A model generated the notes under the pieces. It was not told where the DNA came from. It made no database searches and saw only the letters and a program-made list of their open reading frames with translations. Below, piece by piece: positions 1-938 of a stretch of DNA of 938 nucleotides. Source of the DNA: a phage; sequence record AF039884.1; one strand, given 5' to 3'. The stretch's first letter is position 1; every line of letters starts with the position of its first letter. Position numbers and translations under genes: made by a program.

Positions 1-35
1 GCTTGCATGCCTGCAGGTCGACTCTAGCAGGATCC
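1..35. other. Cloning-vector polylinker (pUC/M13-type multiple cloning site), not native sequence
   Basis: Consecutive restriction sites in the canonical pUC order: tail of HindIII (gctt, 1-4), SphI GCATGC (5-10), PstI CTGCAG (11-16), SalI GTCGAC (17-22), XbaI-like tctag+c+a (23-29, one extra base versus TCTAGA), BamHI GGATCC (30-35). The insert most likely begins at the GATC within the BamHI site (31-35), as expected for Sau3AI/BamHI-type cloning. Confidence 0.9.
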
Positions 36-602
36 CTGCAAATTATTTAAGGTATTTGCTATTTCTTTACGGTCAGCCTTAATAGTTTCCGACATTTCTT
101 TGTATTGCTCTTGATTGAACAAGTTAACAAGAAAAGCCTTACGTGTTGCATCCGTTGCTTTTAGAAAATCTAGGTTGGAACCCACTGATTGATAAATTAG
201 TTTGGTGAATGTTTGAAAGTCACCACCCATAATCTCTTCAATCATCTTATATGTTTGGGTTGCCGTATGCCCACTAATATCTTCTCCATTCTTAATGAGT
301 GTAACTTTAGCAGTTGATTTAACTACTTTATGCAATTCATACTCATCTTCATCTTTTGAGAAGTAAGCGTGCATATCGTATTCTTTCTTAGGGGCATTCC
401 AAGAGAACAATGCATCCTTCTTGATACCTCGAGAGTTCTTGTTATAAAACAACTCCTCGATAACCGTAGCGATGGTGGATTTCCCTAGCCCATTGCCCCC
501 AATTAGTTGAGTAACTGGATTCCTATCGAAATGAATTACGATGTCCTTACCGTAAGACATAACGTTACTAAATTTTAGTGTCCTAATTGTAATCCTTGAC
601 AT
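36..602 (-). CDS. Rad50/SbcC-family ATPase, N-terminal fragment (3'-truncated by the clone boundary); possibly a phage gp46-like recombination nuclease ATPase subunit
   Basis: ATG at 600-602 (minus strand) with AGGAG 9 nt upstream. Translation begins MSRITIRTLKFSNVMSYGKD...TQLIGGNGLGKST, the N-terminal pattern typical of Rad50/SbcC/gp46-type ABC ATPases: a beta-strand lead-in followed by a Walker A P-loop (G35-T43, + coords 474-500). A candidate Q-loop glutamine (Q138, + coords 189-191) sits in YQSVGSNLDFL, followed by a helical stretch (ATRKAFLVNLFNQEQYKEMSETIKADRKEIANTL) consistent with the start of a coiled coil. No Walker B or signature motif is present because the C-terminal half lies outside the window. 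The ORF-track end at 24 lies in vector; codons for the final G-S-C and the TAG stop are vector-derived. Confidence 0.75.
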
Positions 603-684
603 ATTTCGCAGCTCCTAGCCAAGATTCATCAATGTCGCCTTGAGATAACTTCTCGACTTCACGGGAAGTAAAGTCAAGNTCAAC
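583..684 (-). CDS. Possible C-terminal end of an upstream gene (hypothetical protein), overlapping the ATPase start
   Basis: Minus-strand frame offset by one from the ATPase frame is open from about 684 down to a TAG stop at 583-585, translating ...V-x-LDFTSREVEKLSQGDIDESWLGAAKYVKDYN*. The stop lies 20 nt inside the ATPase ORF and the AGGAG site is embedded in this frame, as in translationally coupled operons. Only about 34 codons are visible, the 5' end runs into the low-quality tail (first N at 679), and an open frame of this length in AT-rich DNA is not strong evidence. Confidence 0.25.
   Translation of the reverse strand, partial: VXLDFTSREVEKLSQGDIDESWLGAAKYVKDYN
612..616 (-). promoter_or_regulatory. 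Shine-Dalgarno ribosome-binding site (AGGAG) for the ATPase gene
   Basis: Minus-strand sequence reads GGCTAGGAGCTGCGAAAT-ATG. AGGAG is the reverse complement of + strand ctcct at 612-616, with a 9-nt spacer to the ATG at 600-602. Confidence 0.65.
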
Positions 685-938
685 CTAACATATCAAGGAT
701 NAACAAGATTTAACTTAACGTCCTTAAGAAACCCNAGGGTAATCCTCCTANCNAAAAAATCAAGAGCCTTGGTAGACTTTAATTGGACAACGTCACCAGT
801 AACTCCGNTACACACGTTTANAATCCCAAGGTCAACCCTTAACTGGGCCGATGGTTTACAACTCATTTGGGGNAAACCCCANCTAANCCATCCACTTTAA
901 GGGNNGGTNNNAANACANAANACNTNTGCCCCTTTGGG
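679..938. other. Low-quality read tail (many ambiguous N calls); not reliably annotatable
   Basis: First N at 679, N density rising to near-continuous by 900-930 (gggnnggtnnnaanacanaanacntntgcc). Homopolymer-like stretches such as ggggnaaacccc are typical of late Sanger-read degradation. Confidence 0.85.

Follow-up and report, generated by a model that had tools for sequence, protein, structure and literature searches.

Bacteriophage T5 gene D13 as the almost certain source of a cloned Rad50/SbcC-type ATPase fragment

Introduction

The phage DNA of sequence record AF039884.1, 938 nucleotides long and referred to here as the window over its whole length, contains on its minus strand an open reading frame that is cut short at one end and whose translation displays a P-loop. 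Which protein does this truncated frame encode, and which genome does it come from? A sequence-only reading had recognized the N-terminal ATPase pattern of Rad50, SbcC and phage gp46 in the translation and had left three identities side by side: a subunit of a phage recombination nuclease, listed first, a host SbcC-like repair protein, or an SMC/Rad50-like ATPase of a defence system. It had also pointed to a glutamine as the likely Q-loop residue, to a strong Shine-Dalgarno sequence and to a tight overlap with an upstream frame. The present analysis addresses the origin of the DNA, the family of the protein, the register of its Q-loop and the nature of its genetic neighbourhood.

Results

Origin of the cloned DNA

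Base-by-base alignment with the genome of phage T5 (NC_005859) reveals 100% identity over window 34-522, with 0 differences over 489 bases, and 3 base differences when the comparison is extended to window 34-602. Further along the window, 3 additional differences to T5 are found in 603-660, 19 in 661-760 and 30 beyond 760; past 660, these are mostly indels and Ns, and the identity there falls to about 81-83%. Furthermore, the 431 nucleotide matches retrieved by megablast all belong to Tequintavirus-like phages, the T5 genomes ranking top. Phage H8 was considered as a source and rejected on the basis of its 5 differences in window 34-522, vs 0 for T5; the clone is therefore T5 or a near-identical strain. 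As to its accuracy, the read is clean for about 500 bases, shows miscalls, indels and Ns after about base 520 and is unreliable over its last 400 bases or so. It is because of this clean first part, decaying afterwards, that we consider it a single-pass Sanger read. Altogether, the window almost certainly stems from single-pass Sanger sequencing of a pUC-type clone of T5 (or a near-identical strain), its open reading frame corresponding to the N-terminal 189 amino acids of D13. The features of the window are collected in Table 1.

One position deserves separate mention. At window 648, the plus strand has an A vs a G in T5, a change that leaves the D12 residue a Leu (CTA to TTA), and phage H8 has the same base as the read. 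This A may reflect true variation in the cloned T5 stock or be a chance miscall.

Table 1. Features of the 938-nucleotide window, with positions, strand and supporting evidence
Feature	Position	Strand	Evidence or remark
Cloning-vector polylinker, pUC19-type HindIII-SphI-PstI-SalI-XbaI-BamHI	1..36	+	Match to GCTTGCATGCCTGCAGGTCGACTCTAGAGGATCCC; extra C at base 28
T5 gene D13, first 189 codons: N-terminal ATPase half and coiled-coil start	36..602	-	T5 identity, annotated start, PHROG 77, family profile
Q-loop region, aa 132-147 (FTKLIYQSVGSNLDFL)	162..209	-	No gap from F132 to F146-L147 in the alignments
Walker A / P-loop GGNGLGKST, aa 35-43, catalytic Lys41	474..500	-	Translation and alignment
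T5 D12 C-terminal part, ~118 codons, Mre11/SbcD-like nuclease subunit	583..938	-	T5 annotation; stop at 583-585
D12 end / D13 start overlap, 20 nt	583..602	-	In T5, D12 is annotated up to locus base 4550 and D13 from 4569
Shine-Dalgarno-like AGGAG, 9 nt before the D13 ATG	612..616	-	Probably from a base-calling insertion; TAGAG in T5

The window opens with GCTTGCATGCCTGCAGGTCGACTCTAG(C)AGGATCCC, in which the bracketed C is the additional base, regarded as a miscall, and its bases 1-36 match the pUC19 multiple cloning site from HindIII to BamHI (GCTTGCATGCCTGCAGGTCGACTCTAGAGGATCCC). Indeed, 30 unrelated plasmid records, most of them engineered, contain the first 35-36 bases at 97% identity. T5 identity begins at base 34, and the vector/insert junction can be placed anywhere within 34-36, vector and T5 both reading CCC there. 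Cloning through BamHI and Sau3AI was discarded: in T5 the junction (TGGCCCTGCA) contains no GATC, and the insert is therefore not a Sau3AI/BamHI fragment. A blunt fragment introduced into SmaI, with the run of C compressed by the base caller, is probably what was cloned.

Other candidate elements of the window were scrutinized as well. A terminator-like hairpin (GCAGGATCCCTGC) with a T-rich run, at window 27-39, straddles the vector-insert junction and was rejected as a cloning artefact. The scan for promoters and terminators returned one promoter-like and one terminator-like site, no more than in shuffled sequences, and the search of both strands against Rfam gave no match at E<=1. The plus-strand open reading frames of 21-43 amino acids are antisense to D13 and D12 and were dismissed for want of support.

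D13 belongs to the Rad50/SbcC family

The D13 frame runs on the minus strand from 602 down to about 36, where it ends at the vector junction. Its ATG, at window 600-602, coincides with the start annotated for T5 D13, the translation begins with MSRITIRTLKFSNVMSYG, and the clone carries only codons 1-189 of a protein of 612 amino acids. D13 is already known: T5 is a classic model phage whose reference genome carries the annotation, as do the genomes of hundreds of relatives. The T5 entry, YP_006956.1, names it 'putative recombination endonuclease, subunit D13' and notes a similarity to subunit C of SbcCD.

The Rad50/SbcC/gp46 pattern proposed from the translation is borne out by profile searches. 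PHROG 77, 'SbcC-like subunit of palindrome specific endonuclease', matches residues 1-188 with 185.2 bits (E 4.8e-54), and Pfam AAA_23 matches the fragment with 44.8 bits vs a cutoff of 27. A family profile built from 12 sequences retrieves solved Rad50 structures with E-values of 3.5e-25 to 5.6e-24 and E. coli SbcC (6s6v) with an E-value of 1.5e-18, SMC proteins with 1.7e-8 or weaker, and ABC transporters or EF3 with 2e-6 or weaker; the profile search that had been suggested as a check thus ranks the Rad50/SbcC families ahead of SMC proteins and ABC transporters. Furthermore, tblastn with the fragment reaches T4-type gene 46 directly (RB14 gene 46, 24% identity, E 2e-4). The P-loop GGNGLGKST is where it had been seen, after a beta-strand lead-in, and it aligns to the P-loops of Rad50 and SbcC; its residues G35, N37, G38, G40, K41 and S42 are invariant in the 12 phage homologues, including T4-type gp46.

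Examination of full-length T5 D13 extends this assignment beyond the cloned part. Residues ~160-500 are rich in E, K, Q, R, A and L and poor in Pro and Gly, and residues 161-467 align to the coiled-coil regions of Rad50, in agreement with the earlier suggestion that the charge-rich segment at the end of the fragment could begin a coiled coil. The sole CxxC of the protein, CPTC at 309-312, lies in its middle. Motif and composition thus suggest a coiled coil with a central CPTC zinc hook. The C-terminal half contains a signature-like STGQQ at 525, a Walker B LLFLDE at 554-559 and an H-loop SHGH at 588; the C-terminal region of Rad50 PRK03918 aligns to D13 residues 381-589, and the C-terminal region of SMC_N also aligns. 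With its coiled-coil/hook region, its signature and its Walker B half, D13 is neither a member of an unrelated P-loop family nor a short protein devoid of coiled coil and C-terminal half, the two outcomes that would have spoken against a Rad50-type protein.

How close D13 stands to bacterial SbcC is another matter. Ranked by E-value, TIGR00618 ('exonuclease subunit SbcC') comes first among the NCBIfam models, yet its score amounts to 42.4 bits for the fragment and 65.3 for full-length D13, with a curated cutoff at 478.5 bits, and Pfam SbcC_Walker_B gives 20.9 bits on full-length D13, under its cutoff of 27. Since SbcC_Walker_B and the NCBIfam sbcc/sbcd models all stay below their curated cutoffs, we are dealing with a divergent phage branch, not with a bacterial SbcCD orthologue. 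D13 is, by these profile scores, a relative of bacterial SbcC and not an orthologue. The same data bear on the proposal that the fragment comes from a host (bacterial) SbcC repair protein. That proposal may draw on TIGR00618 being the best-ranked NCBIfam model and on the match of the family profile to E. coli SbcC, but it conflicts with the 489 bases identical to T5, with nucleotide matches that are all from Tequintavirus-like phages, with TIGR00618 scores (42 bits for the fragment, 65 for the whole protein) far from the required 478.5, and with a length of 612 amino acids vs 1048 for E. coli SbcC. The nucleotide identity to T5 together with the TIGR00618 scores excludes it for practical purposes, and we give it next to no credit.

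Alignments place the canonical Q-loop column at V140, two residues after Q138

The glutamine that had been singled out as the Q-loop residue, Q138 in YQSVG, is indeed present (window 189-191), but it does not occupy the canonical position, which lies two residues downstream at V140 (window 183-185). The register was set by HMMER alignments of the fragment with M. jannaschii Rad50 and of the 12-sequence profile with Rad50s and SbcC: V140-G141-S142 is aligned with the QGE or QGQ found in the Rad50s of M. jannaschii and T. maritima and in E. coli SbcC. The homologues of Staphylococcus phage K and Bacillus phage Jabberwock have QGD/QGE at the V140 column. Q138 is conserved in the D13 proteins of Demerecviridae only, as YQS in T5, Sugarlandvirus, Novosibvirus, Thalassavirus and Vibrio phage D120, and T4-type gp46 has a Leu at the Q138 column and a Thr or a Ser at the canonical one (alignment columns ~148-158). 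A single-sequence AlphaFold2 model of the 189-residue fragment was unusable, with a mean pLDDT of 47.6 and values under 50 for residues 1-74.

From these alignments, it is plausible but unproven that Q138 serves as an off-register Q-loop residue. It is conceivable, although we would rather bet against it, that T5-family D13 and, separately, T4-type gp46 go through the Rad50 ATPase cycle using a Q-loop that is not canonical. If so, either Q138 acts from a shifted position or the Q-loop Gln is dispensable, which would be a minor variation in mechanism for a family already well known. Published papers nonetheless state, by homology, that T4 Rad50 shares the Q-loop. An off-register Q-loop Gln in phage Rad50s would be mildly interesting for the enzymology of the T4 and T5 Mre11-Rad50 complexes.

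Differences between the read and T5 around the D13 start

The 3 base differences that fall within D13, at window 523, 583 and 595, each turn an AAG (Lys) into an AGG (Arg), at codons 27, 7 and 3 respectively (K27R, K7R and K3R), and residues R3, R7 and R27 of the read are K in T5 and in all relatives checked (six aligned). At the putative Shine-Dalgarno site, the read has GGCTAGGAGC (GGCTAGGAGCTGCGAAATATG), with an extra base at window 614, and T5, H8, HMD-P5, Bf23, DT57C and vB_Sen_I1 all read GGCTAGAGC. A 1-base deletion located 13 nt from the insertion at 614 compensates the D12 frame, and the pair rewrites five residues, DRILARAA becoming DESWLGAA. Viewed on the read strand, CTT has been called CCT three times, i.e., a T following a C was called as C, and the insertion at 614 is a duplicated C.

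The differences at 523, 583, 595 and 614 are probably systematic base-calling artefacts. The strong Shine-Dalgarno sequence on which the sequence-only reading had commented does not withstand the comparison, since AGGAG occurs in this read only and the extra base is lacking in T5 and five relatives; it is probably a miscall. Should the differences be real, the source of the clone would be an unsequenced variant of T5 whose D13 ribosome-binding site is stronger and which combines K3R, K7R, K27R, the AGGAG insertion and the D12 deletion. They do stand in the read as given, and the base shared with H8 at window 648 makes some real polymorphism possible. We nevertheless hold such a variant to be improbable: none of 209 phage records exceeds 96.9% on window 500-660, the six relatives (~89-100% identity) are invariant at every discrepant position, and none of the differences occurs before read base 520, with Ns and indels building up shortly afterwards. 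Moreover, a CTT to CCT change recurring three times along with a repeated C is typical of a base-caller artefact, and the paired indels would alter five residues of D12. Base-calling artefacts are thus the preferred explanation and, in practical terms, the record yields a vector-flanked single-pass read whose strong Shine-Dalgarno sequence and three amino-acid calls are probably of sequencing origin.

D12, the gene overlap and the T5 neighbourhood

Flanking sequence had been proposed as the place to look for an SbcD/Mre11-type nuclease, and it does hold one. Directly upstream of D13, and adjoining it, the T5 annotation places D12 (YP_006955.1), similar to subunit D of SbcCD. In the read, D12 is split across three frames by indel miscalls and Ns, with fragments such as ...VTGDVVQLKS... 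and ...REVEKLSQGDID...AAKYVKDYN (followed by the stop) in separate frames. D12 scores 29.2 bits on Metallophos vs a cutoff of 21.5, its N-terminus matches SbcD models, including TIGR00619 sbcd, below the curated cutoff, and it displays the phosphoesterase motifs I-III and V as DHH (DxH), GDILD (GDxxD), GNHE and GDLH.

The tight overlap with an upstream frame, also noticed beforehand, is that between D12 and D13 and has in the read the length annotated in T5. Annotated D12/D13 overlaps in other Demerecviridae (Klebsiella, Proteus and Vibrio phages) measure 17, 14, 11 and 4 nt, and the maintenance of an overlap of varying length would fit selection acting on coupling rather than on any given sequence. 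In T5, the 20-nt overlap probably couples the translation of D12 and D13. Such a coupling, which would help to reach a 1:1 stoichiometry of the subunits, is suggested to fit with the weak native Shine-Dalgarno sequence.

Both genes are part of a block carried by one strand of T5 and comprising the D10 helicase, the D11 SSB, a terminator, D12, D13, the D14 RusA-like resolvase, the D15 flap endonuclease and a dUTPase. Inside D13, about 236 nt past the end of the clone, the T5 record bears at 78573-78574 an annotated 'major DNA single-chain interruptions' site (nick consensus).

The gene partner and the neighbourhood also allow the third identity to be assessed, in which the fragment would be an anti-phage defence ATPase such as Lamassu LmuB, Gabija GajA, PARIS AriA or Septu PtuA. 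These families do have an ABC/SMC-type head too, and PADLOC models return weak matches on the fragment (LmuB 30.5 bits, GajA 26.5, AriA 25.3, PtuA 23.4). Such scores are however about six-fold under the 185 bits of PHROG 77, and the matches are largely limited to the P-loop region; the partner of D13 is a phosphoesterase of the Mre11/SbcD type, not a TOPRIM, HNH or Cap4 effector; and D13 sits in the replication/recombination block of T5. With a phage recombination module as its context, a defence function has a vanishingly small probability. Of the three identities considered at the outset, it is the phage recombination nuclease subunit that holds, the DNA being T5 gene D13 with D12 as partner.

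Discussion

The literature searched contained annotation-level mentions of T5 D12 and D13 and no biochemical or genetic data, and the mechanism outlined here is for this reason extrapolated from relatives. The clamp-and-cut model of Mre11-Rad50 is established for E. coli SbcCD and for the archaeal and T4 Mre11-Rad50 complexes. By homology to E. coli SbcCD, archaeal Rad50 and T4 gp46/47, D12 and D13 would form an ATP-dependent nuclease. The N-terminal half of D13, with its Walker A and Q-loop region, would fold back onto the C-terminal half, which carries STGQQ, LLFLDE and the H-loop, by way of an antiparallel coiled coil whose tip would be capped by the CPTC zinc hook. Two D13 chains may then dimerise head-to-head, with ATP at Lys41 sandwiched by the signature motif of the other chain, thereby closing the head. 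The closed head and the hook-joined coiled coils would clamp a DNA end or a hairpin, and a D12 dimer at the base of the coiled coils would thereby be positioned to cut DNA ends or hairpins. T5 D12/D13 presumably prepares DNA ends for recombination-dependent replication and repair, an end-processing role that fits the location of both genes in the early replication/recombination gene block of T5. T4 gp46/47 shares the Mre11-Rad50 motifs (bioRxiv 10.1101/2025.07.29.667502).

D12/D13 of phage T5 is the same gene pair, with equal start codon, 20-nt overlap and strand arrangement, and the sole differences of the read to T5 D13 are the three K-to-R codons and the indels of the ribosome-binding site and D12, all in the low-quality part. 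T4 gp46/gp47 resembles T5 D13 in combining a short phage Rad50 (~560-610 amino acids) with a nuclease of the Mre11 type. The Walker A residues are invariant between T4-type gp46 and D13, but overall identity is only ~23-25%. Both lack a Gln at the canonical Q-loop column (T140 in RB14, V140 in T5), and T4-type gp46 has a Leu where the T5-family proteins conserve Q138. The T4-type loci of RB14, Phi1 and KP15 also differ in their organization, since a small hypothetical open reading frame (46.1 in RB14), and not the nuclease gene, lies directly upstream of gene 46.

Among cellular systems, the Rad50 heads of M. jannaschii (3aux/5f3w), T. maritima (3qf7/3tho) and P. furiosus (1ii8/3qkr) are the best matches with a solved structure (E 3.5e-25 to 5.5e-18). 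These archaeal and bacterial heads align with D13 from residue 1 into the start of the coiled coil, with QGE at the Q-loop vs VGS in D13; the overall identity is low, and a single-sequence phmmer search reaches an E-value of only 1.3e-3. The head of E. coli SbcCD (PDB 6s6v/6s85) aligns over profile positions 4-230 with an E-value of 1.5e-18. E. coli SbcCD is, like D12/D13, a two-gene system made of an ATPase and a phosphoesterase nuclease, and its gene order, sbcD then sbcC, matches that of D12 then D13. In contrast, SbcC is 1048 amino acids long, has a coiled coil much longer than that of D13 and contains the canonical SQGQ Q-loop which D13 lacks, and both D13 and D12 are far under the cutoffs of the curated SbcC and SbcD families.
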